From the NCBI GenBank assembly GCA_965246995.1, contig OZ252008.1:562323-626322 (forward strand): a stretch of DNA of 64,000 nucleotides, given 5' to 3'. The translations under genes and the position numbers were made by a program. The notes under the pieces are model-generated. The model searched no databases, was not told the DNA's origin, and was given only the letters and a program-made list of their open reading frames with translations. Positions within the stretch are counted from its first letter, which is position 1. Each line of letters begins with the position of its first letter. Shown here piece after piece: positions 4,592 to 45,020 of the stretch. The stretch comes from Vicinamibacterales bacterium (GTDB taxonomy: Bacteria > Acidobacteriota > Vicinamibacteria > Vicinamibacterales > UBA8438).

Positions 4592-4749
4592 GAGTCCGTG
4601 GTGAAACCCCGGGTAGCACCGAGAGCGGCGAGGCGCTCGCCTGACAAGGCGCGACGAGGAAGCATATTGGCCATATGAGACCGAGGAGCAACGCCGTTCA
4701 GGCGGGATGCATCGCCGCTCGAATGTAGCGGGGGTTTCACCACGGGCTC
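4592..4749 (-). mobile_element. MITE-like palindromic element, copy B (short form, 158 bp, inverted orientation)
   Basis: Same family as copy A. Termini are GAGTCCGTGGTGAAACCCC ... GGGGGTTTCACCACGGGCTC. It is flanked by the direct repeat CTGG (4588-4591) and CTGG (4750-4753). Confidence 0.85.
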
Positions 4750-4808
4750 CTGGAGACTGGGTGGGTGAACATCGCGAAGAGGCGTTGAGCGAAACGGAGG
4801 GATGAGCG

Positions 4809-5351
4809 ATGGAAAGGCTCTTGGTGGCGGCACTGTTGCTGCGCTTGATTCGGGCGCAGAAGGAAGAAGGAAGCCCGGGCGGCGAGACCCATATTCAGAA
4901 GGCTGTCTATTTTCTGCAGGAGTTGATGCAAGTCCCGTTGAATTTTCGGTTCATCTTGTACCGATACGGACCGTATTCCTTTGAGCTTAGAGATGCGCTC
5001 ATGAGCTTGAGGGCGGATGGGTTGGTTCGACTTGAACCACAACGTTCGGTGGGAGCCAAGATCGTTCCGACGGAGCGCGGTGTGCGGTTCTTGGACTCGC
5101 GGCAAGCGGCGCTTGGGAAGTGGATGGCTAGAATCGAGTTCGTAGCAAAGGCGTTGGGAAGGAATGGCGCGCTCGGCTTGGAACGGCTTGGGACAGCGTA
5201 TTTCGTCACGCACAGGGCGACGATCGAAGCGACGGTTCAGGATCGAGTGAAGGAAGTGAGACGGCGTAAACTGCATATCACGGCGAACGACGCGAAGGAA
5301 GCGGTGGAGTGGGCGGACCGCATTACAGAGCAAGCGGCGACGGTCCGATAA
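4809..5351 (+). CDS. YwgA-like / winged-helix-type small protein, putative partner of the HD phosphohydrolase
   Basis: 180 aa. HIQKAVYFLQELMQVPLNFRFILYRYGPYSFELRDALMSLRADGLVRLE resembles the YwgA pattern (LQK.vY...F.f..YGPYS.EL) as I remember it. A GGAGGG ribosome-binding site lies 8 nt upstream. The 3' end overlaps gltX by 43 nt. Confidence 0.5.
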   Translation: MERLLVAALLLRLIRAQKEEGSPGGETHIQKAVYFLQELMQVPLNFRFILYRYGPYSFELRDALMSLRADGLVRLEPQRSVGAKIVPTERGVRFLDSRQAALGKWMARIEFVAKALGRNGALGLERLGTAYFVTHRATIEATVQDRVKEVRRRKLHITANDAKEAVEWADRITEQAATVR

Positions 5352-8655: not shown

Positions 8656-8685
8656 TAGGCTAGCCCCCCCACAGGAGGCCCCCCC

Positions 8686-10035: not shown

Positions 10036-10064
10036 CGCCGGGCGTCGGCGCGCGGCCTTGCGGG

Positions 10065-10565
10065 TCAGCGAATGCGTTCCACGCGACCGGACGAGCTGCG
10101 GATGTCCTGCTCCTCGACCGCGCCGTCATGAATCGTCACGTTGCCGGAACTGCTGATGTCGATCTGGAGTGCGCCGGCTTCGATGCCCTCCATCGACAGG
10201 TCGCCGGAGCTGCTGATGTCGACCTCGAAGCGGTCCGCCGACAGCCTGGAGGCGTGCGCGTTGCCGCTGCTGGAGAGCGCGATACGCTCGAGGGACCTGA
10301 CGGTGAGCGTAAAGCGAACCGGTTCGGACGGCTGCAGATTGGCACCCCGCCGGCCGCGGATTCTCAGGGTGTCGCCGACCTGTTCCGCCTCGAAATACGG
10401 AAGCAGGTTGTCGTCCGTTTCGATGCGCAGCTCTTCCCGATCCCCAAGATGGATGTCCAGCTCGCCAAGCGTCGACAGCCGGACGCCGGTGAGGTCGGTG
10501 AACGTGTAGGTATCCTCGGCGATCGTTCCCGATCCCTGGAGGGTCTCCTGGTTGGTGATGCTCAC
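10065..10565 (-). CDS. GIN-domain (DUF2807-like, putative adhesin-head) beta-helical repeat protein
   Basis: 166 aa with repeated SSSG(D/N)..(I/V) strands (ALSSSGNAHAS, DISSSGDLSMEG, DISSSGNVTIHDG). No signal peptide is present. The GTG start overlaps the stop of a 19-codon upstream ORF (10562-10621). Confidence 0.55.
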   Translation of the reverse strand: MSITNQETLQGSGTIAEDTYTFTDLTGVRLSTLGELDIHLGDREELRIETDDNLLPYFEAEQVGDTLRIRGRRGANLQPSEPVRFTLTVRSLERIALSSSGNAHASRLSADRFEVDISSSGDLSMEGIEAGALQIDISSSGNVTIHDGAVEEQDIRSSSGRVERIR

Positions 10566-10711
10566 GCAGCCGTGCAGGGCGACCGCTCGGTTTGCGGATC
10601 AGGCTCCCCGGGCTTCGGCATGGAACTTGCGTACCTCCTTCGCATGTCGTTTTCCACTCACGGGAGGCGGCTGTCGCTACGGCCCCCGTTGCGGTAGCCT
10701 TGGAGGAAACG

Positions 10712-11272
10712 ATGATGCCGGACTTCTTGCGGATTGGCGCGGAGGTGATGATCGCGGTCGCGGCGATGCTCACCGTTCTCTGGCGTTTCAACGATTCGCT
10801 CGGTAAGGAGTTGCGCGCGGACATCAGGGTGCTTGGTACCGAGTTGCGCGGTGACATCAGCACTCTCGGTACCGAATTGCGCGGTGAAATCGGAGCACTC
10901 GATACCGAGTTGCGCGGTGAAATCGGGGCGCTCGATGGCAAGTTGTCCGGTGACATCAGGACACTCGGCACCGAGTTGCGTGGTGAAATCAAAACGCTCG
11001 GCACGGAGTTGCGCGGTGAAATCGGGGCACTCGATACCAGGTTCTGCGGTGAAATCGGCACGCTTGGCACGGAGTTGCGTGGTGACATCAGTGCTTTGCG
11101 TGTGGACAACAGAGAGCTGCTCGCCCGAGTGTCAAGAATTGAGGGGCTTCTTGAACTTCGCGCAGAACCGCGCACGAAGGTGGGCGCCACTCAGTCGTCG
11201 TCCGGGTCCAGTCCGGCGGACGATCGCGATGACCCCAAGGAGGATGCGGACAACGCTGTCGCGGGCGGTTAA
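10712..11272 (+). CDS. N-terminally membrane-anchored protein made of 11-residue (hendecad) tandem repeats
   Basis: The ATG at 10712 follows a GGAGGA site. A TM helix (FLRIGAEVMIAVAAMLTVLW) is followed by nine repeats of the type LGTELRGEIGA and an acidic disordered tail. The track ORF start at 10592 is probably too far upstream. Confidence 0.65.
   Translation: MMPDFLRIGAEVMIAVAAMLTVLWRFNDSLGKELRADIRVLGTELRGDISTLGTELRGEIGALDTELRGEIGALDGKLSGDIRTLGTELRGEIKTLGTELRGEIGALDTRFCGEIGTLGTELRGDISALRVDNRELLARVSRIEGLLELRAEPRTKVGATQSSSGSSPADDRDDPKEDADNAVAGG
10808..11104 (+). repeat. Nine tandem 33-bp repeats (consensus GAGTTGCGCGGTGAAATCGGGGCACTCGATACC), in frame in the CDS
   Basis: Unit boundaries counted by hand are 10808, 10841, 10874, 10907, 10940, 10973, 11006, 11039 and 11072. 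Confidence 0.9.
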
Positions 11273-11299
11273 CCTCGCGGATTCAGACCTTCTTCCTGC

Positions 11300-11728
11300 T
11301 CAGGCCGTCACCGTCTCGGGCTTGGGCGCGCCGGCGATCTTGCCCACGACCGCGCCTACCGCGACACACCACACGATCTCGAGGAGCGTCCAGGCCCAGG
11401 CGAGCGTGTAGGCGAAGTCGACTATCACGACGTTCAGAAACAGGTGGGTCGGAAAACCGATGAGCACGCCGGCATAGAGGCCGAAGATCGCTCCGCCCCC
11501 AGCTCCGTCGCGGAAGCAGGAGCGAACCCGCTGGTAGACCCAGACGAACACCGCTACCGAGACGAAATCGCCCACGGTGAGCGCGAGTGGTGAACCCTCG
11601 GTCCCGAACAGGGCGGTCTGCTGGACGTAGAAGGCATTTCCCAGCAGGAAGCCGTGAACGAGGAAGTCCAGGACGTTTGCGACGAGACCGCCAATCACAA
11701 TCGAGAGAACGATCTGCTTCTTGGTCAT
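11300..11728 (-). CDS. Small polytopic membrane protein (DUF1761-like?)
   Basis: 142 aa with four hydrophobic segments and no recognisable catalytic motif. Confidence 0.5.
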   Translation of the reverse strand: MTKKQIVLSIVIGGLVANVLDFLVHGFLLGNAFYVQQTALFGTEGSPLALTVGDFVSVAVFVWVYQRVRSCFRDGAGGGAIFGLYAGVLIGFPTHLFLNVVIVDFAYTLAWAWTLLEIVWCVAVGAVVGKIAGAPKPETVTA

Positions 11729-11750
11729 GATTCCTCCAGTGATTGCGTCC

Positions 11751-13499
11751 TCAGAGTGATTCCCGCAGATACCGCTCGCCGGTCCATTCCGGCGCCTGCT
11801 GATTGTGCTTTAGTCGCACGCGCTGCAGGGCCAGACCGGCGTAGTAATCATCGAGCCGGTCGCTGGCGTGTGCCACACCGGGCAGGCTCGCGGCGGCTTC
11901 CAGGGCGAAGCGGTCGGCAAGGAGCGGGTTCGGCGCGGTGCGGTACGCGCCATTCCACCAGTCGTAGATTCGCTCCTCCGCCTGGCGCAGGATCTGGTCT
12001 CCCGGCAGGAGATTGCGCTTCTCGTGCTGATTGACCTGCCGGTGTGCCGGCATCAGGTTCCAGAGGTCACCGCAGGGCCAGATCGCCCACGGGAAGCAGT
12101 GATCAATGTCGAGGGTTTGGCCTGAGAGCCGGCGACCGGTCCAGACACATTGCAGCGATCCCGTGGCCAGGAGGCGGTCGGCCTGTTCGCGGGCCACACG
12201 AACATCGCGTTCCGGCTCCATCCAGCTCATGGCGTGCGCAAGCGTCCGCTCGTCAAGCGAACGTCCCTGCCGGCCCGCGTACTCGTGCATGAGCAGCTTC
12301 CATTCCGCGACGATCGCTGGCTCGATCCAGACGCTCAGGCGCCGGATCGCCATCCATAGATGCATGGGAACGCGCAGCGTGCCGAAGCTCGCCAGGTAGG
12401 CCGGGGTCAAGCCTCCATCAACCGGCCGGGAGGGCTTGCTCGTCGTGCCCTCGTGGCGGACCGGAAGAATGGGATCGCTACTGTTCGGATAGGTCATGTA
12501 GCGAACCGGCATCCTCACGATCGTCGAGGTGACATCGGACAGGGCCCGGTGCAGCGCCGAAACGGTGTCGCGCGTGAACCGCGCACCCACCCGCAGATCG
12601 TGGTGAGAGACGTCCAGCCCTTCGACGCCATCCTGTTTGACGAACCCCAGTTTGTGGCCGGCGTGATCGTTGACCGGACTCTGCGGAATGTCCGCGTCGA
12701 GGAGCGGTTTGTAGAGTCGAATCCACGTCAGGGCGACGAGTCCCATCGGGATCGTGACATGGTCCTGATCCTGTTCCTCGGCGAGACCGAACGCGCCGTC
12801 GGCGATGCGGCAGAGCACGCGGAGCAGGCCCAGCTTGTAGGTTGAACTCTTCGAGTCGTTCAGGATGACGTTGCGGAGTAGCGGGAGCGCATCTGTCCCG
12901 TCGTCCGGGAGGCGGATCGCAACCTGGCTCCAGCGGACATCGCCGCGGCCCATCTGATCGTCGCCCGTCGCCTCCCGTTCCACGTACGCGCCGTGGTCCC
13001 GCGCGAGGCGGCGGAGTTCGGCAACCGTGACGGGGTGGAAGCCGCGGTTGTCTTCATCGGGTCCGTCGCGGAGGGTGATCGCGAGGAGACCGCCGGGCTT
13101 GAGCAGGGTGATCAGTTTGCGGAAGGCGCGAGGTCGATCCGTCGGGGCGAGGTGCATCCAGACCGCGCTCACGAGGATGACGTCGAACGAAAGGCCGGTC
13201 GAGAAGGTCTGCTTGAGCGCGGGAAGGCGGTCGTCGAGCCAGGTTATGGAACAGTCGGCGTGTCGGGCCCGGCCGAACTCCCGCATGCCGTCGGACGGCT
13301 CGACGGCGACGACGTCATAACCCATCCGGGAGAGTTGCGCGGCGTCGCGCCCGCTGCCGGCGCCCACGTCGAGGATGGCGGCGGGCGATGTCGGGAGCAG
13401 GTCGGCGAGCCAGCCGTGGACACGCTCGAAGGAGGTCGACTCGTAGCGCGCCGTGGCGGTCTCGGCGTGGGCGTTGTACCAGGCTATCGCGTCAGTCAT
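11751..13499 (-). CDS. Fusion protein with an N-terminal class I SAM-dependent methyltransferase, a central uncharacterised domain and a C-terminal HNH nuclease
   Basis: ILDVGAGSGRDAAQLSRMGYDVVAVEPS...VILVSAVWMHL...LLKPGGLL is the Rossmann SAM motif I and post-I region. The centre reads SKSSTYKLGLLRVLCRIA. The C-terminus reads LDIDHCFPWAIWPCGDLWNLMPAHRQVNQHEKRNLLP (HNH). 582 aa. Confidence 0.7.
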   Translation of the reverse strand: MTDAIAWYNAHAETATARYESTSFERVHGWLADLLPTSPAAILDVGAGSGRDAAQLSRMGYDVVAVEPSDGMREFGRARHADCSITWLDDRLPALKQTFSTGLSFDVILVSAVWMHLAPTDRPRAFRKLITLLKPGGLLAITLRDGPDEDNRGFHPVTVAELRRLARDHGAYVEREATGDDQMGRGDVRWSQVAIRLPDDGTDALPLLRNVILNDSKSSTYKLGLLRVLCRIADGAFGLAEEQDQDHVTIPMGLVALTWIRLYKPLLDADIPQSPVNDHAGHKLGFVKQDGVEGLDVSHHDLRVGARFTRDTVSALHRALSDVTSTIVRMPVRYMTYPNSSDPILPVRHEGTTSKPSRPVDGGLTPAYLASFGTLRVPMHLWMAIRRLSVWIEPAIVAEWKLLMHEYAGRQGRSLDERTLAHAMSWMEPERDVRVAREQADRLLATGSLQCVWTGRRLSGQTLDIDHCFPWAIWPCGDLWNLMPAHRQVNQHEKRNLLPGDQILRQAEERIYDWWNGAYRTAPNPLLADRFALEAAASLPGVAHASDRLDDYYAGLALQRVRLKHNQQAPEWTGERYLRESL

Positions 13500-13523
13500 C
13501 GGACGCGCCCTACGCGGCGCCGC

Positions 13524-14057
13524 TCACTCGAACACGTTGATCAGGGCATACGTGATCGCGCCGCCATCGGGGACGACGACCTGGTGCCACGAGCGGGCGG
13601 GCACATGGAGGATATCCCCCACGGTGACCTGGAACGCCTGCGCGCCTTCAAGTTGCGGCGTCTGACCTTCAGGCGGCTGTCCGTCGGTGAAGTTCACCCG
13701 CTCGCCGCCGACCCGAACTGTCCCGGAGCCCTTCAGGACGACGTAGATGTCCCACTTCGTCTCGTGGATCTCCGGCTGCGTGTAGCCCGCGCGGTGAATG
13801 ATCTGGACGGTGTGCGGCCGGTGGTCGGCGCTCGGCAGGGCCGTTTCGACCGCGAACGGCGTGCCCCAGATGCCCTCGCCGTTGGAGAGGGTTTCTTCGA
13901 GCGCGTCCTGAAAGTTCTCAACCGCCGCGGCGTCCCAGAGGATGTACTCCTCGGGACGAGGCTCGTTCGTGACATCCGCGAAAGGGTCGTCCTGCGCCGC
14001 CGCGAACGCAGGCAGTGCGAGAAACGCCAGCACCGTGAGGAAGCCTGCCGTGCGCAT
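13524..14057 (-). CDS. Secreted cupin-domain protein
   Basis: It has the signal peptide MRTAGFLTVLAFLALPAFAAAQ and cupin strands (HETKWDIYVVLKGSG...GDILHVPARSWHQV). Confidence 0.65.
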   Translation of the reverse strand: MRTAGFLTVLAFLALPAFAAAQDDPFADVTNEPRPEEYILWDAAAVENFQDALEETLSNGEGIWGTPFAVETALPSADHRPHTVQIIHRAGYTQPEIHETKWDIYVVLKGSGTVRVGGERVNFTDGQPPEGQTPQLEGAQAFQVTVGDILHVPARSWHQVVVPDGGAITYALINVFE

Positions 14058-14130
14058 GTGTCACCTCCATGGCGAGCGGGTTGTTGCGACGGTTATCGTA
14101 ACCGGGAAGCGGGCGTGCGGGGAGGTGGAC

Positions 14131-14183
14131 GTGCCGGTCGGGAGACCGGCACACCGACCGGCGAACCGACCGGCGCAGCGGCC
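14131..14183. repeat. GC-rich hairpin plus ~12-nt repeat element, copy 1 (intergenic)
   Basis: GTGCCGGTCGGGAGACCGGCACACCGACCGGCGAACCGACCGGCGCAGCGGCC. The hairpin is GCCGGTC-GGGA-GACCGGC, followed by (N5)GACCGGC units. Confidence 0.75.
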
Positions 14184-15500: not shown

Positions 15501-15536
15501 GGGGCGGGAGTATATGGGAAAGGGTGGGTTTTATTT

Positions 15537-15586
15537 CGCCGGTCGGAGACCGGCGCACAGACCGGCGCACAGACCGGCGCACCATG
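15537..15586. repeat. GC-rich hairpin plus 12-nt repeat element, copy 2 (intergenic)
   Basis: GCCGGTCGGAGACCGGC followed by GCACAGACCGGC GCACAGACCGGC GCACC. Confidence 0.75.
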
Positions 15587-15635: not shown

Positions 15636-16979
15636 GTGCACATCATCATCATTGGCGGCGGCGACATCGGCTATCCGCTGGCCAAGGCCCTCTCGGCGCA
15701 GCACGACGTTTTCCTGGTCGACCGCGATCCGCTGCGCGCCCACCGTTTTTCCCACCTCGACGTGGAGTTCGTCGGCGGCAGCGGCACGAGCCCCGACGTG
15801 TTGCGGAACGCCGGCGTCGAGAAGTGCGACCTGCTGATCGCGGCGACGCGCCTGGACGAGGTGAACATCGTCGCCTGCTCGCTCGGGAGTGGCCTGGGCG
15901 CGAAGCGGACGGTCTGCTTCGTGACGAAGGCCGACCTGCTGGAGCAGCGGAGCGGGAACGACAGCCTCCAACGCAACTTCGGCATCGACGAGATCATCTG
16001 GCCGGAAGCGCAGCTCGCGGCGGGGATCGAGCGGATCATCATGGCGCCCGGCGCGGTCGACGCGGAGCTGTTTGCCGGCGGGCGGATCGAGCTGCTCGAG
16101 TTTCGCCTCGACGCTGGCTCGCCGTTCGTCGGCCGCGAGGTGGCGTCGCTTGCGCTCCCGGCCGGCGTCGTCATCATCGCGCTCAAGCACGAGCACTCGA
16201 CGTCTATTCCGAGCGGCCAGACCGTGCTGGAGGCGGGCGACAAGGTGGTGCTGATGGGGACGCGCGACGGGATGACGGACCTGCGCCCCATCATCGCGCC
16301 GGCGAGCAGGGACTCCGACCGGCAGATGGTCACCATCATCGGCGGCGGCGATGTCGGCTTCCGGCTTGCGCAGAGCCTCGACCGGGTGGATGGCATCCGT
16401 CTGGTCGTCATCGAGCGCGAGCGCGAGCGGGGTGAACTGCTGGCCGCGGCGCTCCGCAACGCACTGATCCTGCGGGGCGACGGTACCGACCTCGAGCTGC
16501 TCGAGTCGGAAGAGATCGGCCGGAGCGATGTGCTCGTTTCGGTAATCGACAACGACGAGCGGAACCTGCTCGCCTCGCTCCTCGGCCACCAGTTGGGCGT
16601 GCGCAAGGTGATTACGCGCGTCAGCAAGCCGTCGAACCATCATCTCTTCGAACGGGTCGGAATAGACGTGGCGCTGTCGGCGCGTGGCGCGGCGGTCACG
16701 TCCGTCATCCACGGGATTGATGGCGGCCGCGCGAGTCTGCTCGCCGTCCTCGAGGAGGGACAGGCACGCGTGGTTGAACTGGCCGTGCCGGGCGGGTTCC
16801 AGTCGACCGCGGTACGCGATCTCGGCCTGCCGAAGGATTCGATCATCGGATCCGTTCTGCGCGACGGCGCGGTAATCGTGCCCCGCGGCGACGATCGCGT
16901 TCAGGGAGGCGATCGCCTGCTGGTCTGCTGCACCGAGCCGGCCGTCCGCGGCGTGCGCGACCTGTTCGCCCACGCGTAG
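15636..16979 (+). CDS. trkA: Trk potassium uptake system, NAD-binding subunit
   Basis: Two RCK/TrkA-N repeats are present (HIIIIGGGDIGYPLAKAL and MVTIIGGGDVGFRLAQSL). 447 aa with a GTG start. Confidence 0.9.
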   Translation: MHIIIIGGGDIGYPLAKALSAQHDVFLVDRDPLRAHRFSHLDVEFVGGSGTSPDVLRNAGVEKCDLLIAATRLDEVNIVACSLGSGLGAKRTVCFVTKADLLEQRSGNDSLQRNFGIDEIIWPEAQLAAGIERIIMAPGAVDAELFAGGRIELLEFRLDAGSPFVGREVASLALPAGVVIIALKHEHSTSIPSGQTVLEAGDKVVLMGTRDGMTDLRPIIAPASRDSDRQMVTIIGGGDVGFRLAQSLDRVDGIRLVVIERERERGELLAAALRNALILRGDGTDLELLESEEIGRSDVLVSVIDNDERNLLASLLGHQLGVRKVITRVSKPSNHHLFERVGIDVALSARGAAVTSVIHGIDGGRASLLAVLEEGQARVVELAVPGGFQSTAVRDLGLPKDSIIGSVLRDGAVIVPRGDDRVQGGDRLLVCCTEPAVRGVRDLFAHA

Positions 16980-16984
16980 CCCAG

Positions 16985-17178
16985 GAGCCCGTGGTGAAAC
17001 CCCTGCTACATTCGAGCGGCGATGCATCCCGCCTGAACGGCGTTGCTCCTCGGACTGCGTTCAGTCCGCGGACTGCGTCAGTCCGCGGTCGCAATATGGC
17101 CAATATGCTCCCTCGTCGCGCCTTGTCAGCCGGGCGCCTCACCGCTCTCGGTGCGACGCGGGGTTTCACCACGGGCTC
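16985..17178 (+). mobile_element. MITE-like palindromic element, copy C (long form, 194 bp, two central hairpin modules)
   Basis: It has the same termini as copy A. The centre carries GGACTGCGTTCAGTCC and GGACTGCGTCAGTCC. Flanks are CCAG (16981-16984) and CTAG (17179-17182). It lies between trkA and trkH. Confidence 0.85.
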
Positions 17179-17192
17179 CTAGCACCCAGTCG

Positions 17193-18659: not shown

Positions 18660-18695
18660 GCGCGCCGTGGTTCGCCGGCGCTGGTTCGCCGGCAC

Positions 18696-20138
18696 TCACC
18701 CCATTCCCGCGAGCTGCGCGTTCAGGATGTCCCACGCGCGGCGGACATGCCGCTCTTCCGTCCGGATGTGACCAATGGCGAGGCGCAGGGCATACGCGCC
18801 GTGGAGCTTCGTGTGCGAGAGGAAGACCTCGCCGGTGGCGTTGACGGCGTCGAGCAGACGCTGGTTGAGCGCGTCTGGATCGTCACCACCGGTCGTGGCG
18901 CGGAAGCAGACGACGCTGAACGGCACCGGCGAAAGGCGCTCGAAGTCTGGGCTTGCGTCGACCCAGTCCGCGAACTGTTGTGCGAGGCGGATGTGTTCGG
19001 CGAGGCGCTCGCCGATCCCGTCGGATCCGAAGTAACGCAGCACCGCCCAGAGTTTCAGGGCGCGGAACCGGCGGCCGAGCTGCACGCCGGTATCCATCAG
19101 GTTGCGCACGCCGGCGTCGCCTTCGCGGGTCTGCAGATAGTCCGGCGTCAGCGAGAACGCCGCGCGCACATCGTCCATCCGCCGGCAATAGAACGCGCTG
19201 AGATCGAACGGCGTAAACAGCCACTTGTGCGGGTTGACGACTACCGAATCGGCCCGCGCGCAGCCGTCCATCACCCCGCCCATGCCGGGGACCAGCGCGG
19301 CCGCGCCGGCATACGCGGCATCGACGTGCAGCCAGATGCCGCCATCCCCGGCGACCAGATCGGCGATCGCTTCCACCGGATCGACGCTGGTGGTCGACGT
19401 TGTGCCGACCGTCGCGACGACCGCCATCGGGACGATGCCGGCGGCCCGGTCCGCCGCGATTGCTTCCCGCAGCGCATCCGCCCGCATCCGGAAACGGTCA
19501 TCGGCCGGGATCTTCCGGATCGCGTCCAACCCCAACCCGAGTGTCATCACCGCCTTGTCGACCGATGAATGCGCCTGCTCGGAGGCGTACACGGCCAGCG
19601 GTGGCAGGTCCGCGCGCCCTGCCATCCCCCGTGTCCGTGTCTCCGGCGCGGCCCGATGGCGCGCCGCCGCCAGCGCGTGCAGCGTCGAGATCGACGCCGT
19701 GTCGTAAATCACGCCTTCGAACGGCTCAGGCAGCCCGAGGAGTTGCCGGAGCCAGCCGAGGGTTACCTCTTCCAGCTCTGTCGCGGCGGGCGAGGTCCGC
19801 CACAGCATCGCCTGCACGTTGAGCGCGGCGGAAAGAAACTCCGCCAGCACGCCGGGGGCGCTGCCCGAGATGGCGAAGTATCCGAAGAAGCCGGGGTGGT
19901 TCCAGTGGGTGAGGCCGGGGACGACTACGCGCTCGAAGTCGCGGAAGATCGCCTCGAACTCCACCCCTTCGCGGGGCGGGTAGTCGGGCAGCGCGCCGCG
20001 GATGTCGCCCGGATTGGCGCGCGACAGTACCGGATAGCGTTCCGTGTCATCGAGGTACGTCGCGATCCAGTCGACGAGCGCATGCCCCTCGCGCCGAAAT
20101 GCCTCCGCATCCATGTCGCCGAGGCGTCTGCTGGACAC
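18696..20138 (-). CDS. PLP-dependent group II decarboxylase (aromatic-L-amino-acid/tyrosine decarboxylase-like)
   Basis: MDAEAFRREGHALVDWIATYL...THWNHPGFFGYFAISGS...NPHKWLF carries the PLP-lysine motif. The likely start is the ATG at 20114. Confidence 0.85.
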   Translation of the reverse strand: MSSRRLGDMDAEAFRREGHALVDWIATYLDDTERYPVLSRANPGDIRGALPDYPPREGVEFEAIFRDFERVVVPGLTHWNHPGFFGYFAISGSAPGVLAEFLSAALNVQAMLWRTSPAATELEEVTLGWLRQLLGLPEPFEGVIYDTASISTLHALAAARHRAAPETRTRGMAGRADLPPLAVYASEQAHSSVDKAVMTLGLGLDAIRKIPADDRFRMRADALREAIAADRAAGIVPMAVVATVGTTSTTSVDPVEAIADLVAGDGGIWLHVDAAYAGAAALVPGMGGVMDGCARADSVVVNPHKWLFTPFDLSAFYCRRMDDVRAAFSLTPDYLQTREGDAGVRNLMDTGVQLGRRFRALKLWAVLRYFGSDGIGERLAEHIRLAQQFADWVDASPDFERLSPVPFSVVCFRATTGGDDPDALNQRLLDAVNATGEVFLSHTKLHGAYALRLAIGHIRTEERHVRRAWDILNAQLAGMG

Positions 20139-21272: not shown

Positions 21273-21312
21273 GTCCACCGGCCCGCGGGCCGGCTTCGCC
21301 AAGACTCTCGCC

Positions 21313-22881
21313 GTGCCGCGCCTCATGCCGGACGTTCCAACCGCGGCGACCGTCCGGTGGCGCCCCTGGTGCGCGTCCACGTTCACGGATGCCCGCAGTG
21401 CCGGCGTCCCGGTGTTGCTGTCGCTCGGGCCGTCCTGGTGCCGCGCCACCGCCGCGATGGCGTCGGCCACGTACGGGGATCCCACCGTTGCCGCGCACGT
21501 TGCGGATCGGTTCATCCCGGTCCACGTCGATCCCGACGCACGTCCCGACATCGCCGACCGCTACAGCCTGGGCGGCTGGCCCACCACCGCCTTCCTGACA
21601 CCGGACGGCGACCTGCTGGGCGGCGAGACGTACATCCCGCCCGAACGGATGCGCGGCCTGTTGCCGCAGGTTGCCGACGCCTTCGCCGCACAGCGCGACG
21701 CGATTGCCGGGCGCGGCGGATCGGCAAGGGAAACACCCGTGCCGCCGTCCGCGCCCGACCGGACGATCGACGGTTGGCTCGCTGCCCACCTGCTCGATCA
21801 ATTCGACGCCACGCACGGCGGTTTCGGATCGGCGCCGAAGCGTGTGCATGCGGCGGCGCTCGAATATGCGGCGCGCCGCGCTGGGGCGGGGGACGACCGA
21901 TTTGGCGAGGTGGTCGATCGGACGCTGCGGGCGATCGGATGGGGTGGGCTGTACGACGACGTCAACGGCGGCGTGTTCCGCTATTGCGCGCGATCGGACT
22001 GGACGGAGCCGGCGACCGAGAAGCTGCTCGGTACGAATGCCGCGGCCTTGCGGCTCTTCCTGGAACGCGACGATGACCGTTGTCGGGAACGCGCCGTCCA
22101 TCTGATCAGCTACGTCCGGCGCACGCTGCTCGGGCGGCCGCATGGGCGCGCGGTGTTCTTTGCGAGTCAGCGGGCGGATCCGGCTTTCTATAGCTGCCGG
22201 TCGGGAGACCGGCGCGCCGACCGGCGCACAGACCACGACTACAGCCGGTCTGGAGACCGGCGAACGAATGAGCGCACCCACGAGACGCCGCCGGTGGTGG
22301 ATCGCGCGCTGTACGCGGACGGTACCGCGCTGATGGTCCGGGCCTGGACACGCGCCGCAACGGTGCTGGGTGACGAGAAGCTGCTGGCGGATGCGGTCGA
22401 CGCGCTGGAGCATGTGGTTGGCGGCACCTACGAGCGCGGCGGCGGCATCGCGCATCAGGTCGGCGAACGCGCGGACGCCGCCAGCCAGGTGCGAGGGTTG
22501 CTCGTCGATCAGGTGACGAACAGCGGAGCGCTCCTCGATCTGTATGCGGTGACGGACCGTGACGTCTATCTCGACATGGCGCAGGAACTGATGCACTTCT
22601 GCATCCGCCATCTCTGGAACGACGCGGCCGGAGGCTTCCGTGACCGGGTCCACGCGAACGACGACATCGGCCTCCTGCGGGAAGCGGTGTACCCCTTCGG
22701 CCTCAACTGCGACGCCGCTCGGGTCCTCGTCCGCCTCAGCCACCTGACGGGGCAGCCACAGTTTCGCGACCGTGCCCTCTCGACGCTCGCCGCGCAGTCC
22801 GCCGCCGCCCGCCCCCAGGGCGTCGACGCGGCGCCGTACGCCCTCGCGCTGCAGGATCTCGCCGCTACCCGCGATCCGTAG
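21313..22881 (+). CDS. Thioredoxin-fold DUF255/YyaL-like protein with a C-terminal (alpha/alpha)6-barrel-like domain
   Basis: WRPWCASTFTDARSAGVPVLLSLGPSWCRATAAMA...FIPVHVDPDARPDIADRY is DUF255-like, but the usual CHWCH motif is degenerate. It contains an in-frame GC-hairpin repeat insertion at 22193-22270. Confidence 0.65.
   Translation: MPRLMPDVPTAATVRWRPWCASTFTDARSAGVPVLLSLGPSWCRATAAMASATYGDPTVAAHVADRFIPVHVDPDARPDIADRYSLGGWPTTAFLTPDGDLLGGETYIPPERMRGLLPQVADAFAAQRDAIAGRGGSARETPVPPSAPDRTIDGWLAAHLLDQFDATHGGFGSAPKRVHAAALEYAARRAGAGDDRFGEVVDRTLRAIGWGGLYDDVNGGVFRYCARSDWTEPATEKLLGTNAAALRLFLERDDDRCRERAVHLISYVRRTLLGRPHGRAVFFASQRADPAFYSCRSGDRRADRRTDHDYSRSGDRRTNERTHETPPVVDRALYADGTALMVRAWTRAATVLGDEKLLADAVDALEHVVGGTYERGGGIAHQVGERADAASQVRGLLVDQVTNSGALLDLYAVTDRDVYLDMAQELMHFCIRHLWNDAAGGFRDRVHANDDIGLLREAVYPFGLNCDAARVLVRLSHLTGQPQFRDRALSTLAAQSAAARPQGVDAAPYALALQDLAATRDP
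22193..22270. repeat. GC-rich hairpin plus repeat element, copy 3 (in frame inside a CDS)
   Basis: CTGCCGGTCGGGAGACCGGCGCGCCGACCGGCGCACAGACC...GCCGGTCTGGAGACCGGCGAACG. It encodes the low-complexity peptide CRSGDRRADRRTDHDYSRSGDRRTNE. Confidence 0.7.
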
Positions 22882-25048: not shown

Positions 25049-26776
25049 ATGGTGATCATGTCCAGAAAGACACTGGCGGTGGCGGCGATGCTGGGAATCA
25101 CGCTGATCGGCTCCGACTTCCAAACGCAGGCGCAAACGCAGGATGCCCTCGGCCACGGCTACAGCCGCCCGGCCCGCAGCGTCCATGGCAGCCGTTCCGA
25201 GGTGATCGCCCCGAACGGTATGGTCGCGGCGAGCCAGCCGCTTGCCGCGCAGGTGGGCCTCGAGGTCCTCAAGTCGGGCGGCAACGCGATCGATGCCGCC
25301 GTCGCGGTCAACGCGATGCTCGGCCTGGTCGAGCCGCACATGAACGGGGTTGGCGGCGACCTCTTCGCCATCCTCTGGCACGCCGAGACCGAGCAGCTCT
25401 ATGCGCTGAACGGCACCGGGCGCGCGCCGTACGAGATCAGCCGCGAGACGCTGGTCAGCCAGGGCTACGAACGGATGCCGGGCGCCGGTCCGCTCACCTG
25501 GACGGTTCCGGGCGCGGTCGATGCCTGGTCGCAACTGCTCGAACGCTTCGGCACGATGGAGCTGGCCGACCTGCTCCAGCCCGCCATCGACTACGCGCGC
25601 AACGGCTTCCCGGTCAGCGAGATCATTCAGGGGCAGTGGTCCGGGTCGATGCCGTCCCTCCGCGAGTGGCCGACATCAGCCGCGACGTACCTGCCGAACG
25701 GCAGGCCGCCGGCTGTGGGCGAGCTGTTCAAGAACCCGCAGCTCGCGGACACCTACGAACAGGTCGCGCGCGGCGGCCGCGATGCGTTCTACCGCGGCGA
25801 GATCGCGCGGAAGATAGTCGCGTTCAGTGAAGCGAACGGCGGCTACTTCACGATGGCCGACTTCGAGGATCACACGTCCGAGTGGGTCGAGCCGGTCGGC
25901 ACCAACTACCGCGGCTACGACATCTGGGAGGTACCGCCCAACAGCTCCGGGATCCTCGCACTGATGATCCTGAACATCCTGGAGGGCTATGACATCGCGT
26001 CGCTCGGCCACAACAGCGCGGATGCGCTGCACCTCTTCGCGGAGGCGAAGAAGCTGGTCTGGGCGGATCGCAACACCTACGTCGCCGACGCGAACGCCAA
26101 CACGCTGCCGACGCAGCCGCTCATCTCGAAGCCGTATGCGGAATCGCGCCGCAAGATGATCGACAAGGGACGCGCCGCGACCGAGGTGACCCCCGGCAAC
26201 CCGTTCGAGCACAGCGACACCGTCTATCTGACCGTGGTCGACAAGGACCGGAACGCCATCTCGTTCATCGAGAGCATCTTCGGCGGTTTCGGCTCGAAGA
26301 TCGTGCCGGGCGACCTCGGCTTCGCGCTCCAGAACCGGGGTTCAGGCTTCTCCCTCGAGGAGGGGCACCTCAATTCGCTCGAGCCGCACAAGCGCTCGCT
26401 CCACACCAACATGCCGGGCTTCGTCACCAAGGACGGCAAGCCGTTCATGCCGTTCGGCGTGATGGGCGGTCCGATGCAGCCGCAGGGTCACTGGCAGATC
26501 CTGTCGAACATCATCGACCACGGCATGAACATCCAGGAAGCGGGCGACGCCGCGCGCGTGCGCCACAGCCCGAGCAGCTATCCGGGGGGCACGCTGGCCG
26601 TCGAGCCGGGCATCTCGGACGAAGTCATCGCGGAGCTCCGCCGCCGCGGCCACCATGTCGAACGGCAGGGTGGGGGCGGCATGGGGGGCTACCAGGCGAT
26701 CATGATCCACCCCGAAACCGGCATGCTCCACGGCGGGACCGATCCTCGCAAGGACGGTCTGGTGGCGGGGTACTAG
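25049..26776 (+). CDS. ggt: Gamma-glutamyltranspeptidase
   Basis: It has a signal peptide and GMVAASQPLAAQVGLEVLKSGGNAIDAAVA. The autoprocessing region reads HSDTVYLTVVDKDRNAISFIESIFGGFGS. The stop TAG (26774-26776) lies in the CTAG flank of MITE copy D. Confidence 0.9.
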   Translation: MVIMSRKTLAVAAMLGITLIGSDFQTQAQTQDALGHGYSRPARSVHGSRSEVIAPNGMVAASQPLAAQVGLEVLKSGGNAIDAAVAVNAMLGLVEPHMNGVGGDLFAILWHAETEQLYALNGTGRAPYEISRETLVSQGYERMPGAGPLTWTVPGAVDAWSQLLERFGTMELADLLQPAIDYARNGFPVSEIIQGQWSGSMPSLREWPTSAATYLPNGRPPAVGELFKNPQLADTYEQVARGGRDAFYRGEIARKIVAFSEANGGYFTMADFEDHTSEWVEPVGTNYRGYDIWEVPPNSSGILALMILNILEGYDIASLGHNSADALHLFAEAKKLVWADRNTYVADANANTLPTQPLISKPYAESRRKMIDKGRAATEVTPGNPFEHSDTVYLTVVDKDRNAISFIESIFGGFGSKIVPGDLGFALQNRGSGFSLEEGHLNSLEPHKRSLHTNMPGFVTKDGKPFMPFGVMGGPMQPQGHWQILSNIIDHGMNIQEAGDAARVRHSPSSYPGGTLAVEPGISDEVIAELRRRGHHVERQGGGGMGGYQAIMIHPETGMLHGGTDPRKDGLVAGY

Positions 26777-26952
26777 GAGCCCGTGGTGAAACCCCCGCTA
26801 CATTCGAGCGGCGATGCATCCCGCCTGAACGGCGTTGCTCCTCGGACTGTGGCAGTCCGCGGTCGTCATATGGCCAATATGCTCCCTCGTCGCGCCTTGT
26901 CAGGCGAGCGCCTCGCCGCTCTCGGTGCTACGCGGGGTTTCACCACGGACTC
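26777..26952 (+). mobile_element. MITE-like palindromic element, copy D (medium form, 176 bp, one central hairpin module)
   Basis: It has the same termini as the other copies and a central GGACTGTGGCAGTCC. It is flanked by CTAG (26773-26776) and CTAG (26953-26956). Confidence 0.85.
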
Positions 26953-28158
26953 CTAGTTCCACGGAGGGGTCCTCCCCAATTCCGCTGGCGCGAGGGACAA
27001 GTTGGGAAGAGCCGCGAGACGGGCCACGTCCGTGACCGCCAGGACTGTGATGTTGCGGTCCGCCGGGTAGGTGCTGTTCGTTGGACAGACGACGAACAGG
27101 TGATCGAGCCCGAGTGTGGCGGTAACGTTGCGCAACTGGGCGGTCACCCTGGGCGCCTCGCTGAACTTCACCTCGAATCCGATACGGCGGCCGCGGTGTA
27201 ACACGAGCAGGTCCAGCTCGCCGCCCCCGTGGGCCGCCCAGAACCACGCCTGAACGGGATCCAGGGCCGACAGGATCTGTTCGATCACGAAGCCTTCCCA
27301 GGATGGCCCGACACGCGGGTGGCTGAAGAGCTCGGCGTCGTTCCGGATCCCGAGCAACGCGTGCAGCAGACCGGTGTCGCGGAGGTAGACCTTCGGCGCC
27401 TTGACCTGGCGCTTGGCGACGTTCTCGTACCAGGGCTGGAGCTGGCGGACCATGAAGGCTCCGGTCAGCAGGTCCAGATAACCGCGGACCGTCTTGTCAG
27501 AGGCGCTGATCGAGCGGCCCAGGCTGGAGGCGTTCCAGGTCTGGCCGTGCCAGTGCGCGAGCATCGTCCAGAACCGCTCGAGGGCGGCGGCCCGGATGGT
27601 GATGCCCAATTGCGGGATGTCGCGTTCCAGGAACGTGCGTATGAACGCGCGGCGCCACGAGTGGCCGTCGTCATCCGTCGGCGCGAGATACGACCTCGGA
27701 AGTCCGCCGCGCAGCCAGAGCGTCCGCCAGGCGTCGGCGCCGGTCTCCGAGAGATCGAAGCCGGTCATATCGATGAACTCGACCCGGCCGGCGAGGGACT
27801 CGGATACAACCCGCACGATCCCGGGTGACGCGCTGCCCAGGATCAGGAAGCGCGTTCTCGCGCCGGGGCGGTCTGCCAGCACCCGCAGGACGTTGAAGAG
27901 GTGCGGCATCCGCTGGATTTCGTCCACCACAACCAAGCCGTCGAGCGCCCCGAGGACCAGCTCGGGATTGGCGATTCGGCGAACGTCCTGATTGGATTCC
28001 AGGTCAAGAAAGGTGGCGTTGCGCGTTGCCGCGAACTGCCGGGCGAGCGTCGTCTTGCCGCACTGCCGGGGTCCCAGCAGCGAGGTGACAGGCGCGCGGC
28101 GGGTTGCGGCGGCGAGTCGATCCAGGTAGTCGGAGCGGGCAACCAGGGTGTCTGACAC
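26953..28158 (-). CDS. AAA+ ATPase with a DUF4143-type C-terminal domain (COG1373-like)
   Basis: The Walker A motif is LLGPRQCGKTTLARQF and the Walker B region is LVVVDEIQ. 401 aa with a GTG start. The stop is the reverse TAG of the MITE flank. Confidence 0.75.
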   Translation of the reverse strand: MSDTLVARSDYLDRLAAATRRAPVTSLLGPRQCGKTTLARQFAATRNATFLDLESNQDVRRIANPELVLGALDGLVVVDEIQRMPHLFNVLRVLADRPGARTRFLILGSASPGIVRVVSESLAGRVEFIDMTGFDLSETGADAWRTLWLRGGLPRSYLAPTDDDGHSWRRAFIRTFLERDIPQLGITIRAAALERFWTMLAHWHGQTWNASSLGRSISASDKTVRGYLDLLTGAFMVRQLQPWYENVAKRQVKAPKVYLRDTGLLHALLGIRNDAELFSHPRVGPSWEGFVIEQILSALDPVQAWFWAAHGGGELDLLVLHRGRRIGFEVKFSEAPRVTAQLRNVTATLGLDHLFVVCPTNSTYPADRNITVLAVTDVARLAALPNLSLAPAELGRTPPWN

Positions 28159-28244: not shown

Positions 28245-29009
28245 CTATCGTTCCTGCGGCACGAAGACGTCCCGCGCGGGCATCTGCACCTGCGCGAGCG
28301 TGCTGGCGTTCATCACCGCGTCGGTCTCGATGATGCCGTTCTCCGCGAGCAGCCAGGCGGAGAGGGCGTAGACCTCGTCGTTGGCGAGGGTGCCGGGTGC
28401 GTTCGAGGGCATCGCTCTCCGGATGTAGTCGAAGAGCGTGGTGGCGTAGGGCCAGTAGTTCCCCACCGTGAACGGGACGTCGTCACCGTCGCCACGCCAT
28501 TCCTCGTAACGGGGGCCGAACGGCGGCGCGGTCCCCGGTTCGTAGCCGACGAGCGGTTCTGCGCTCATTCCTTCGCCGGCGCGGCCGTGGCAACTGGCGC
28601 AGTGGCGGAGGTAGATCGGCGCGCCGTCGGCGTGGGAGCCTTCGCCTTCCGGGAGGCCGGTGCCGTCCGGCATCACATCGATGTCCCACGCGGTGATCTC
28701 TTCGTGGGTGGCCTCGCGGCCGAAGCCGAAGCGGTCGGGATAGCCGGCCGGCGCTGTGGTGCCGACCGGCGCTGTGGTGCCGACCGGCACTGTGGTGCCG
28801 ACCGCCGCCGTCGTGTCGGCGGGCGCCGCATCGGTCATTGTTGCCGGCTCGGCGGCGGGCGGTGCGCTGTCCGCGCCCGTGCAACCGGCCGCGAGCACTG
28901 CGACAGCGAACAGCGTGGAGGCGAGACGCGTGAGCGCGAGATGCGTGAGGGATCCCGGCGTGGACGCCGGCGGACCATACGCCGGCGCACCGCGCGTTAT
29001 GCGTCCCAC
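28245..29009 (-). CDS. sorB: Cytochrome c subunit of sulfite dehydrogenase (lipoprotein-type signal)
   Basis: CASCHGRAGEG is the heme c site, and the lipobox-like segment is LFAVAVLAAGC. The proposed GTG start at 29009 overlaps the sorA stop. The longer track ORF (to 29504) overlaps sorA out of frame and is unlikely to be real. Confidence 0.65.
   Translation of the reverse strand: MGRITRGAPAYGPPASTPGSLTHLALTRLASTLFAVAVLAAGCTGADSAPPAAEPATMTDAAPADTTAAVGTTVPVGTTAPVGTTAPAGYPDRFGFGREATHEEITAWDIDVMPDGTGLPEGEGSHADGAPIYLRHCASCHGRAGEGMSAEPLVGYEPGTAPPFGPRYEEWRGDGDDVPFTVGNYWPYATTLFDYIRRAMPSNAPGTLANDEVYALSAWLLAENGIIETDAVMNASTLAQVQMPARDVFVPQER
28748..28801. repeat. Three tandem 18-bp repeats (CCGGCGCTGTGGTGCCGA) inside sorB
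   Basis: Units start at 28748, 28766 and 28784. On the minus strand they encode (V/A)GTT(V/A)P x3 in the linker after the lipobox. Confidence 0.8.
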
Positions 29010-32878: not shown

Positions 32879-33679
32879 GTGGGGCCGAGCGTTCCGATGA
32901 TCACCTGGACTGCGTACGAAGCGGTGCTGTTCGACCTCGATGGGGTGCTGACAGCGACGGCGCGGCTGCATGCGACGTCTTGGAAGCGGATGTTTGATGC
33001 GTTTTTGGGGGAACGGGGGACTGTTGGTAGTGCCGGTCGGGAAGGCAAAGGGAATGCCGGTCGGGAGACCGGCGGACCGACCGGCGGACCTTTTAAGAAA
33101 AGGGATTACGCGCGGTACGTGGATGGGCGCCCACGGTATGACGGGGTGCGCGCGTTTCTGGCGTCGCGCGGGATGACCTTGTCCGATGGCGAGCCGTCCG
33201 ATGCTCCGGGGCATGGGACGGTCTGCGCGCTGGGGAACCGCAAGAACGCCCTCTTTCACGAACTGCTGGCGACCGAGGGGGTCGAGACCTACGACGGGTC
33301 GCTGGCGGTGGTGCGGCATCTGCAGGCGAATGGGGTTCGGAGAGCGGTCGTCTCGTCGAGCCGCGGCTGCCGGGAGATTCTGGACGCGGCGGGGATCGCG
33401 GATCTGTTCGAGTTGCGTGTCGACGGACTGACGGCGGAGGCCGAGGGGCTGGCGGGGAAACCGGCCCCCGACATGTTCGTCCACGCGGCGCAGACCTTGG
33501 GCATCGAGCCGGCGCGCGCGGCGGTCGTGGAAGACGCCATCGCCGGGGTGCAGGCGGCACGCGCGGGAGGTTTCGGGCTCGTCGTCGCGATCGACCGGAC
33601 CGGGGCGCCGCAGGAGTTGGCGGCGGCAGGGGCGGATGTGGTCGTGACCGACCTGGGGGCGACGCTGGACGAACGGTAG
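32879..33679 (+). CDS. pgmB: Beta-phosphoglucomutase (HAD superfamily)
   Basis: VLFDLDGVLT is HAD motif I, and it continues ...YVDGRPRYDG...SSS...VVEDAIAGVQAARAGGF. An alternative ATG lies at 32897. It contains an in-frame GC-hairpin repeat insertion at 33033-33090. Confidence 0.8.
   Translation: MGPSVPMITWTAYEAVLFDLDGVLTATARLHATSWKRMFDAFLGERGTVGSAGREGKGNAGRETGGPTGGPFKKRDYARYVDGRPRYDGVRAFLASRGMTLSDGEPSDAPGHGTVCALGNRKNALFHELLATEGVETYDGSLAVVRHLQANGVRRAVVSSSRGCREILDAAGIADLFELRVDGLTAEAEGLAGKPAPDMFVHAAQTLGIEPARAAVVEDAIAGVQAARAGGFGLVVAIDRTGAPQELAAAGADVVVTDLGATLDER
33033..33090. repeat. GC-rich hairpin plus repeat element, copy 4 (in frame inside a CDS)
   Basis: GTGCCGGTCGGGAAGGCAAAGGGAATGCCGGTCGGGAGACCGGCGGACCGACCGGCGGACC. 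It encodes SAGREGKGNAGRETGGPTGGP. Confidence 0.7.
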
Positions 33680-36171: not shown

Positions 36172-36802
36172 CGACGCCGTTGTCGACGATGATGTGGAAC
36201 GGTGGGTTCGACATCGTCCCGAAACGCTGAAAGTGGACGTTGGCAAAGACCTGCCGGGCGATGGAGTAGCGCAGCCGGTCGTCTGACCGCGTGGCGGGGA
36301 GCACATCGAAGTTCACCTGCACGTCCTGCACGCCCCGAATCTTCGCGATCCGCTCGAACAACTCGCGCGCCTTGTCCCGCTCCGGGGTCACCTTGCCGAA
36401 CAGCGTGACGGCGCCCTCGTTGACGCGGCCATCGATCAGATCCCATATCTGGTAGTGGGGATATCGCTGCACCGCGCGGCCCACCTCCTCGGCCAGGCGC
36501 TCCTCGTCCTCTTCCGCCGGGACGATGATTTCGCTGGCGACAGTGCTGATGCCGTTGACGCCGAGCGCCCGCTGAATGGCCCGGTGCTTGTCCCAGAAGG
36601 TGTTGACGGGCCCGGAGAGCGTCGCTTCGTCGCCGGCCACGGTCACCTCGAGTCGCCGCATGGAGCGCTCATCGTGCAATTCCCTCTCGACACGCTGCTG
36701 AAGCTGATCGGGGGTCTGCGCCGCGGGAGCGGCCGTGGCCACTACGGCAACGGCGGTCACGGCGAGGAAGACACGAACAAGGCGGTGTGATATCGAAGAC
36801 AT
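36062..36802 (-). CDS. Secreted protein with three BON domains (OsmY-like)
   Basis: A signal peptide is followed by three repeats ending in ...V.V..G.VTL.G.V (VTVAGDEATLSGPV, GRVNEGAVTLFGKV, IVDNGVVTLVGYV). Confidence 0.75.
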   Translation of the reverse strand: MSSISHRLVRVFLAVTAVAVVATAAPAAQTPDQLQQRVERELHDERSMRRLEVTVAGDEATLSGPVNTFWDKHRAIQRALGVNGISTVASEIIVPAEEDEERLAEEVGRAVQRYPHYQIWDLIDGRVNEGAVTLFGKVTPERDKARELFERIAKIRGVQDVQVNFDVLPATRSDDRLRYSIARQVFANVHFQRFGTMSNPPFHIIVDNGVVTLVGYVQSQIEVIELQRIVGQTQGVMRVENQLQIP

Positions 36803-36929
36803 TGTTTTCTCCAGCGCTGGGCTCCCTTCCGTTGTATCACACCCACGGACCGCGCGCCCGCGGCAGCCGCCCGCCGGCAGTCTCCAGCCGGCCAGCGGGA
36901 GTGGTTCCGGGTGCTACAGTTGTCGCCCG

Positions 36930-38375
<1,446 letters not shown>

Positions 38376-41681: not shown

Positions 41682-41685
41682 CTAG

Positions 41686-41861: not shown

Positions 41862-41887
41862 CTAAGCCGCTGGCCGCGCGAGGCCGG

Positions 41888-44913: not shown

Positions 44914-45020
44914 GCGGGGGATAGTAATGGCAGGTCGGGGTGAGCGTCGACGTCGTGCAATGCCGGCGTGGACGCCGGCGCACCATGGAGATCCCCGCCC
45001 CCATGGGCGCCGGCCCACCG

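Follow-up and report, generated by a model that had tools for sequence, protein, structure and literature searches.

Short palindromic repeats that lie in frame within protein-coding genes are already known from several bacteria. Intragenic in-frame copies of repetitive extragenic palindromic (REP) sequences have been described for Opitutus terrae, Rickettsia conorii (RPE-4 and RPE-6), Thauera, and others, where they encode 20–30 residues that are probably accommodated in flexible loops (Di Nocera et al., 2013, PMC3733652). Rickettsia palindromic elements (RPEs; Ogata et al., 2000) are the classic case and are presented in PMC10969869 as in-frame palindromic elements in protein genes. Here we analyzed 64,000 nucleotides from a Vicinamibacterales bacterium of the phylum Acidobacteriota (assembly GCA_965246995.1, contig OZ252008.1, positions 562,323 to 626,322), a stretch with 67% G+C that is referred to as the window and to which all positions below refer. 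In this window a short hairpin repeat occurs between genes, as well as in frame inside protein genes. A preliminary description of the DNA had judged in-frame intragenic copies of a REP-like element to be unusual and contrary to the definition of REPs; such copies have been described before (PMC3733652, PMC10969869), and the present family adds another case. We regard it as probable that the repeats belong to a dispersed family of palindromes that resembles REPs and is carried by a lineage of uncultured Acidobacteriota; its in-frame copies would be those that have survived selection.

Copies from the window were compared with those from eight syntenic loci (L120–L127) of related metagenome-assembled genomes (MAGs), which were fetched via exact-protein look-ups. 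The comparison yielded a consensus unit of about 24–30 nt, T-GCCGGNN-(T/G)GGA-N'N'CCGGC-GCACC(A), which combines a G+C-rich stem of 7 bp, in which GCCGG is followed by two closing pairs that vary, with a 4-nt loop (T/G)GGA and the conserved 3' tag GCACC(A); as a search pattern the unit reads TGCCGGNN[TG]GGANNCCGGCGCACC. A full unit is often trailed, in direct orientation, by half-units, each made up of the 3' arm and the tag. Half-units follow one another directly in the window and so produce a 12-nt period (GACCGGCGCACA; Tandem Repeats Finder), unlike in L122, where they are spaced by 18–19 nt. Since the intergenic copies have the 12-nt period too, it is intrinsic to the element and not shaped by coding. 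The earlier suggestion that a 4-codon periodicity makes length changes frame-neutral is correct as far as the changes themselves are concerned, but the period does not owe its existence to the reading frame. Every half-unit is complementary to the one 5' arm, so that alternative hairpins are possible. The closing pairs covary between sub-families: TC/GA predominates in the window and CC/GG in L122, L123, L124, and L126, CG/CG is found at window positions 37605 and 44962, and L125 has the stem variant GCCGACG/CGTCGGC. Across 29 distinct units, which had been pre-selected for pairing, 98.5% of the stem cells are paired. Compared to shuffled sequence, the two longer intragenic inserts described below fold with z = -2.7 (DUF255 gene) and z = -4.4 (HAD gene); in the latter, duplication of the 5' arm gives rise to a nested double hairpin. 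The lengths of the hairpin (18 nt), of the hairpin with its tag (24 nt), and of the half-unit (12 nt) are all divisible by three, and translation of the unit in six frames, done by hand only, gave no stop codons. An interpretation of the hairpins as intrinsic terminators was rejected, as there is no T-run downstream.

A covariance model (R1), built from 30 units and run on the window without filters, recovered nine units at eight loci with E ≤ 0.0024, all other matches having E values of about 0.06 or more. Four of these loci are intergenic, one is located at a gene junction, and three lie in frame inside genes; positions 1–14000 and 45000–64000 contain no R1 units. The 18-mer GCCGGTCGGGAGACCGGC, allowing for up to two mismatches, occurs four times (at 14133, 22196, 33056, and, with one mismatch, 22244), against a chance expectation of 0.02 on average, and none out of 100 dinucleotide-preserving shuffles reached four occurrences. 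As claimed in the preliminary description, the same DNA element is present in intergenic DNA around a transporter gene and in frame within two genes. The copies at 18666 (minus strand), 28950, 37601, and 44958 come in addition to those described there, the one at 37601 being in frame in a third gene.

The intergenic copies are found after the stop of the transporter gene, between the divergent transporter and trkA genes, between the convergent trkH and decarboxylase genes, and between a pyrroloquinoline quinone (PQQ) dehydrogenase gene and a peptidase M1 gene. The first of them (14129..14183, plus strand; R1 38.7 bits) lies between a cupin gene start and the stop of the CitMHS/MatC transporter gene and comprises a full unit (GCCGGTC-GGGA-GACCGGC) and two 12-nt half-units. 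In the divergent transporter/trkA spacer, a hairpin with a 3-nt loop at 15538 is combined with three perfect 12-nt half-units (15534..15582, plus strand; 21.4 bits). The convergent spacer of trkH and the pyridoxal phosphate (PLP)-dependent decarboxylase gene is only 36 nt long and is filled by a degenerate unit or half-unit pair (GCCGGCGAACCA twice; 18666..18697; 22 bits, E 0.0016), which is the sole minus-strand copy in the window. Between the PQQ dehydrogenase stop and the peptidase M1 start there is a single unit (GCCGGCG-TGGA-CGCCGGC-GCACCA; 44958..44987, plus strand; 43.2 bits). The gene-junction copy (28950..28992, plus strand; 25.9 bits) consists of a degenerate unit (CCCGGCG-TGGA-CGCCGGC-GGACCA) and a half-unit and is located where the genes for a molybdenum (Mo)-cofactor oxidoreductase and a cytochrome c meet; its coding status is uncertain.

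The first host gene (21325..22881, plus strand) encodes a YyaL-like thioredoxin-like protein of 518 aa, counted from the ATG of the database entry, which is assigned to DUF255/Thioredox_DsbH by Pfam. It harbors two consecutive plus-strand units, namely unit 1 at 22192..22239 (GGGA loop and half-unit; 38.9 bits) and unit 2 at 22240..22287 (TGGA loop, decayed tail; 37.3 bits). The resulting peptide CRSGDRRADRRTDHDYSRSGDRRTNE is encoded by 22195–22272 in the frame of the open reading frame (ORF) 21313–22881. Just 5' of the start of this gene, at 21278–21293, there is a perfect 16-nt palindrome (CCGGCCCGCGGGCCGG), which is kept in L120 and present as a variant in L123; it has no tag and thus stands outside the hairpin family. 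The second host gene (32897..33679, plus strand), directly upstream of a GH65 phosphorylase gene, encodes a beta-phosphoglucomutase-family HAD hydrolase (Pfam HAD). Its insert (33029..33094, plus strand; 41.3 bits) is composed of an extra 5' arm (33033–33044), a full unit (33052–33081), and half-units, and the peptide SAGREGKGNAGRETGGPTGGP is encoded by 33029–33091 in the frame of ORF 32879–33679. The name pgmB, which had been given to this gene before, is too strong, since the protein, with 153.0 bits, stays just under the TIGR02009 (beta-PGM family hydrolase) cut-off of 153.35 and, with 97, far under the bPGM equivalog cut-off of 189. It is possible that the near miss of the NCBIfam cut-off is due to the insert. 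The closest solved structure is that of Mycobacterium tuberculosis Rv3400 (8h5s). The third host gene (36735..38375, plus strand) encodes a two-domain PPK2-type polyphosphate:AMP phosphotransferase (TIGR03708, 606 bits), whose true start probably lies downstream of 36735. Here, a single unit (GCGGGCG-TGGA-CGCCGGC-GCACCA; 37601..37630, plus strand; 40.6 bits) sits in the inter-domain linker and encodes AGVDAGAP.

The DUF255 and HAD ORFs remain open and full length across their inserts, and the PPK2 ORF is intact as well. In the first two genes the shared DNA is translated in a different frame each (SGDRR versus AGRETG), so that the likeness between the inserts is one of DNA and not of peptide. 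For both proteins AlphaFold2 models were built from the respective orthologue alignments. The models are confident, with a mean predicted local distance difference test score (pLDDT) of 90 for the HAD and 84 for the DUF255 protein, but internally pLDDT drops below 50 in the inserts and nowhere else, at residues 51–65 in a loop of the HAD cap domain and residues 299–323 in the helical domain of the DUF255 protein. The preliminary description had anticipated the preserved frame, the location in loops, and the pair of hairpins in the DUF255 insert; its account of the inserts was right in content and 2–4 nt off in position (22193–22270 instead of 22195–22272 in the DUF255 gene; 33029–33091 is the interval found here for the HAD gene).

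We then compared both sites with those of orthologues. About 30 HAD homologues, down to 57% identity, show the pattern ...RAAA-xGxPFRPF... at the insert site. The insert is confined to the closest clade (P0001–P0009 and P0012), where 9–35 residues are added that show signatures like AGLETGAPTGAP, and in the DNA the orthologous copies are plain to see. P0010 lacks the insert, as do P0011, whose locus L127 presents an empty site at the DNA level, and all remoter homologues. At the DUF255 site the remoter homologues have a linker of about 12 residues. Two units are present there in the window and in L120, one in L121, and two diverged ones in L122, L123 retains a lone half-unit (GACCGGCGCACCA), and P0124, P0125, P0128, and P0129 have none. 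Judged from these alignments, both inserts are lineage-specific insertions relative to the orthologues. Unit 2 of the DUF255 gene is shared with L121, in which unit 1 is missing as a gap of 51 nt. Because it is absent from L121, unit 1 is, on the aligned sequences, the younger of the two and would have been gained after the split from the L121 lineage.

Further filled and empty sites are found at the other loci. L121 lacks a block of about 100 nt in which the 14133 copy lies, and the 99%-identical strain L120 has a broken hairpin in this copy. The copy in the transporter/trkA spacer has orthologues in L120, L121, L122, and L123, full units occupy the orthologous trkH/decarboxylase site in L122 and L123, and the unit at 28950 corresponds to an orthologous unit at 6052 in L125. 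At 44962, L125 has an empty site and L127 a degenerate one. Length changes of the inserts are found as well. Within the 90%-identity cluster of the window DUF255 protein, P0249 is 12 residues shorter, and the underlying DNA (L248, an 18x contig) has a clean deletion of 36 nt (3 × 12) between the GACCGGCG repeats at window positions 22219 and 22255, which removes the 5' arm and the loop of the second hairpin and keeps its 3' arm. The HAD inserts of L124 and L126 likewise differ by 36 nt in their tails. These data bear out two earlier proposals, that the peptides are insertions relative to orthologues and that their length varies in multiples of 12 nt. The copies at 14133, 22196, and 33056 have in common the GGGA loop, a lineage-specific variant in whose place the orthologous HAD site of relatives shows TGGA, and the HAD copy of L122 bears the CC/GG variant of its own genome. 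In the PPK2 linker a sense unit in the window faces an antisense unit in L125, with PPK2 proteins that are 88% identical. As far as can be read from the compared sequences, these patterns indicate a family that is active or homogenising now or was so recently, and not one ancient accident.

A tentative alternative, to which we assign a clearly smaller but still appreciable probability, is that the repeats are old and vertically inherited and that since an ancient seeding there has been no transposition, only gene conversion, slippage, and deletion between arms, which would produce the shared genome-specific variants as well as the apparent gains and losses. Many loci are indeed orthologous across genomes, including the transporter/trkA, trkH/decarboxylase, HAD, and DUF255 sites, the only event observed directly is the deletion between direct repeats in L248, and a transposase was not found in the approximately 230 kb searched (tblastn with RayT). 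On the other hand, some window copies face cleanly empty sites in close relatives, where loss may be the cause, a unit of 51 nt has been added 5' of an older one in the DUF255 gene, and the orientation of the unit in the PPK2 linker is opposite in two genomes with PPK2 proteins that are 88% identical. For these three observations new insertion is the easier explanation.

The family was further compared with described elements. With REPs it shares the imperfect, G+C-rich palindrome of small size (20–40 nt), one end of which bears a short conserved tag, the dispersed copies, which would be numerous by extrapolation from about 230 kb and are mostly intergenic, often just past stops or between convergent genes, and in part arranged in clustered arrays, the existence of several sub-families per genome with compensatory stem variation, and the occasional in-frame copies that add 8–30 residues. 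Moreover, the same 18-mer hairpin is found in GTAG-type contexts in Acidobacteriaceae. In a genome scan with the 18-mer, the exact hairpin GCCGGTC-GGGA-GACCGGC was detected, among the matches listed (L001–L119), in REP-like repeats of other groups, followed on the 3' side by [G/A]CTACA (GTAG type) in Acidobacteriaceae, by CCTCCA in Opitutaceae, and by CCACAA in Planctomycetes; among the same matches, the Acidobacteriaceae hairpin often stands in tandem arrays with other hairpins that share a GGTCNGGAGACC core. Since the same hairpin thus recurs in other groups, each with its own tag, the window family looks like a lineage-specific relative of those repeats with the tag GCACCA. There are also differences to REPs. 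The tag GCACCA (reverse complement TGGTGC) puts GGTG in the place of GTAG and is outside the degenerate forms GYAG, GYRG, GTRG, GTMG, and GTGG listed in PMC3733652. Half-units and arrays are in direct orientation, in contrast to the inverted dimers known as REPINs (REP doublets forming hairpins) or bacterial interspersed mosaic elements (BIMEs), and the nested hairpin of the HAD insert comes from a duplicated 5' arm and not from an inverted REP pair as in a REPIN. No gene for a REP-associated tyrosine transposase (RAYT), an HUH Y1 enzyme whose gene typically has REPs on its flanks, was found in the approximately 230 kb, and three out of eight window loci is a high intragenic fraction.

With RPEs the family has in common that a selfish palindrome is carried in frame in unrelated housekeeping and metabolic genes, in surface segments compatible with the fold, and with a lineage-specific presence. 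However, RPEs are about 100–150 nt long (RPE-4 and RPE-6 are shorter), encode a conserved peptide, and occur in the A+T-rich reduced genomes of obligate intracellular bacteria, whereas the unit described here has 24–30 nt, is G+C-rich, is read in at least two frames, and belongs to a free-living or host-associated Acidobacteriota lineage; there is no sequence homology between RPEs and the unit. Like a minisatellite or variable-number tandem repeat, the 12-nt tail varies in frame (the 36-nt deletion in L248 and the 36-nt difference between L124 and L126), but the tandem part is the tail of a dispersed hairpin element that is also present in non-coding DNA and is not derived from the host genes. 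Transposable elements of the miniature inverted-repeat type (MITEs) differ in that the unit has no terminal inverted repeats beyond the hairpin and that filled and empty sites show no consistent duplication. No match was obtained for the whole window in Rfam at the gathering threshold, nor for the 36-aa DUF255 insert with HMMER against 1.84 billion representatives. A protein search with the six-frame translation of the consensus element gave 18 word candidates without scores, and a literature search for the core motifs as strings returned irrelevant primer matches only.

For a REP-like family, the presence of in-frame copies could be explained as follows. New copies would arise at new sites, mostly between genes. 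Copies that land in coding sequence would survive only if the added length is a multiple of three, if no stop codon is introduced, and if the site is a loop or linker with room for 8–35 additional disordered residues. Once inserted, copies would change further in length as the repeated arms slip or recombine, in the window genome in steps of 12 nt and hence with the frame kept, and the encoded peptides would be neutral passengers. An enzyme of the HUH/RAYT type that acts on single-stranded hairpins is the textbook candidate mobiliser. In the present case such an enzyme would be the most plausible driver, template switching together with gene conversion being the other candidate.

Several points weigh against this reading. 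A RAYT gene was found neither in the window nor in L120–L127 by tblastn with an E. coli RayT query, a weak test that covers about 230 kb, and no transposase of any kind was linked to the element. The tag is neither GTAG nor CGTC. Comparison of filled with empty sites allowed neither a target-site duplication nor a conserved target to be defined, and a TA that may accompany the 51-nt insertion in the DUF255 gene is ambiguous. The high copy number is extrapolated from about 230 kb, that is, the window plus the relatives' loci; more than 20 units in both orientations occur within the 21.6 kb of L122, which is a 2x-coverage contig with probable frameshifts. Covariation counts are inflated, as the units were chosen by a regular expression demanding pairing. 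Finally, neighbor-joining trees nest the insert-less genes P0010 and P0011 within the insert-bearing clade, in single-gene trees without support values; insert-less genes inside insert-bearing clades would mean either precise loss or repeated gain. It might be that the repeats form a distinct REP-like class, characterized by a tag other than GTAG or CGTC and by half-units, which is mobilised by a non-RAYT enzyme, is currently active, and recurrently targets the same permissive linkers. Pointers in this direction are the PPK2 linker with its units in opposite orientation, the new DUF255 unit, and the genome-specific loop variant across loci, but we consider this stronger proposal rather unlikely. 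If it were true, housekeeping enzymes would continually receive lineage-specific disordered loops from this class.

It was also considered whether the intragenic hairpins are kept for a function in cis, such as pausing of the ribosome or the RNA polymerase at domain boundaries, mRNA protection, or protein binding. In favor of this, the hairpin core of the HAD insert is intact in genomes with proteins that are just 75–85% identical, and the changes between genomes are either located in the loop or compensatory (T-A to C-G in L122). All three intragenic sites are located at domain or sub-domain boundaries, and the inserts fold significantly more stably than shuffled sequence. However, the compensatory change in L122 equals the family-wide variant of that genome, so that conversion or re-insertion explains it equally well, and the orientation in the PPK2 linker is not the same between genomes. 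Furthermore, close relatives are without the insert (P0010 and P0011 for the HAD gene, P0124, P0125, P0128, and P0129 for the DUF255 gene), L248 has lost half of the second hairpin, and L123 retains only a half-unit. With inserts missing or truncated in close relatives and strains, a cis-regulatory role is disfavored, and we regard it as improbable. That Gly/Pro/Thr/Arg-rich linkers in a genome with such a G+C content have come to share similar DNA by chance, without any common element, is hardly credible: every homologue has a variable linker of low complexity at the host site, and the pattern GGAGACCGGC-N5-GACCGGCG is common in unrelated high-G+C coding DNA, but identical 18–20-mers are present in genes and spacers where 0.02 would be expected, the DUF255 and HAD genes read the same DNA in different frames, and the architecture of palindrome, tag, and half-units is shared with many intergenic copies. 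The metagenome matches to GGAGACCGGC-N5-GACCGGCG (at least 120 loci) were rejected as family members, since all of them are hairpin-less chance matches in coding DNA and the pattern is too generic.

Apart from the hairpin family, the region contains a number of other repeats. In L122, at least eight hairpin units are arrayed between the Mo-enzyme and cytochrome c genes (16397–16699) with 30/51-nt spacing and a 111-nt higher-order repeat. All spacings in this array are multiples of three, and an ORF is open opposite to the strand of the flanking genes; on this 2x contig several genes look frameshifted. An interpretation as an array resembling clustered regularly interspaced short palindromic repeats (CRISPR) was rejected, given the 30/51-nt higher-order repeat and the lack of unique spacers. 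In the window, the cytochrome c gene (minus strand, about 28245–29009) contains an in-frame 18-nt tandem repeat, GCCGACCGGCGCTGTGGT, with 4.7 copies at 28743–28826, which encodes (TTAPVG)n in a linker past a lipoprotein-type signal peptide and has just GCGCCGGTC in common with the hairpin unit. To judge from coordinate offsets, a difference of 18 nt, possibly one repeat unit, would separate the 99%-identical L120 from the window near this repeat. A separate MITE-like family of about 165–210 nt is represented by six copies in both orientations (2177–2342, 4586–4751 on the minus strand, 16981–17182, 26773–26956, 41680–41863 on the minus strand, and 61734–61900), which have near-perfect terminal inverted repeats of about 22 nt (TAGGAGCCCGTGGTGAAACCCC ... 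GGGGTTTCACCACGGGCTCCTA) and, optionally, an internal duplication of 18 nt. The copy between trkA and trkH fills a spacer of 213 nt, and the same spacer has 15 nt in L121. Two segments near MITE-like copies, 41116–41173 and 61178–61235, are 79% identical and encode ...YCARGD(I/M)ENRIKE..., a motif that we take to resemble a DDE transposase signature. The plus-strand ORF 10592–11272 (226 aa) includes about nine copies of a 33-nt repeat at 10799–11091, corresponding to the 11 residues LGTELRGEIxA; with higher-order periods of 66 and 99 nt it looks like a coiled-coil or an apolipoprotein/late embryogenesis abundant (LEA)-like sequence. The adjacent paralogous segments 52556–53534 and 54844–55801, about 2.27 kb apart and with 72–75% DNA identity, constitute a tandem gene duplication.

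Overall, the hairpin family provides a clean, well-polarised example from outside Rickettsia of selfish palindromic DNA being built into proteins, in three enzymes within one 64-kb window, and offers orthologous filled and empty alleles, an in-frame indel at the strain level, and a linker that has been hit in both orientations. If the mobilising enzyme is identified, the known range of REP tags would be extended. For annotators it follows that low-complexity inserts in proteins from Acidobacteriota MAGs may be repeat DNA and not assembly errors. Short repeats that are stop-free by hand translation and have lengths in multiples of three can seed disordered loops.

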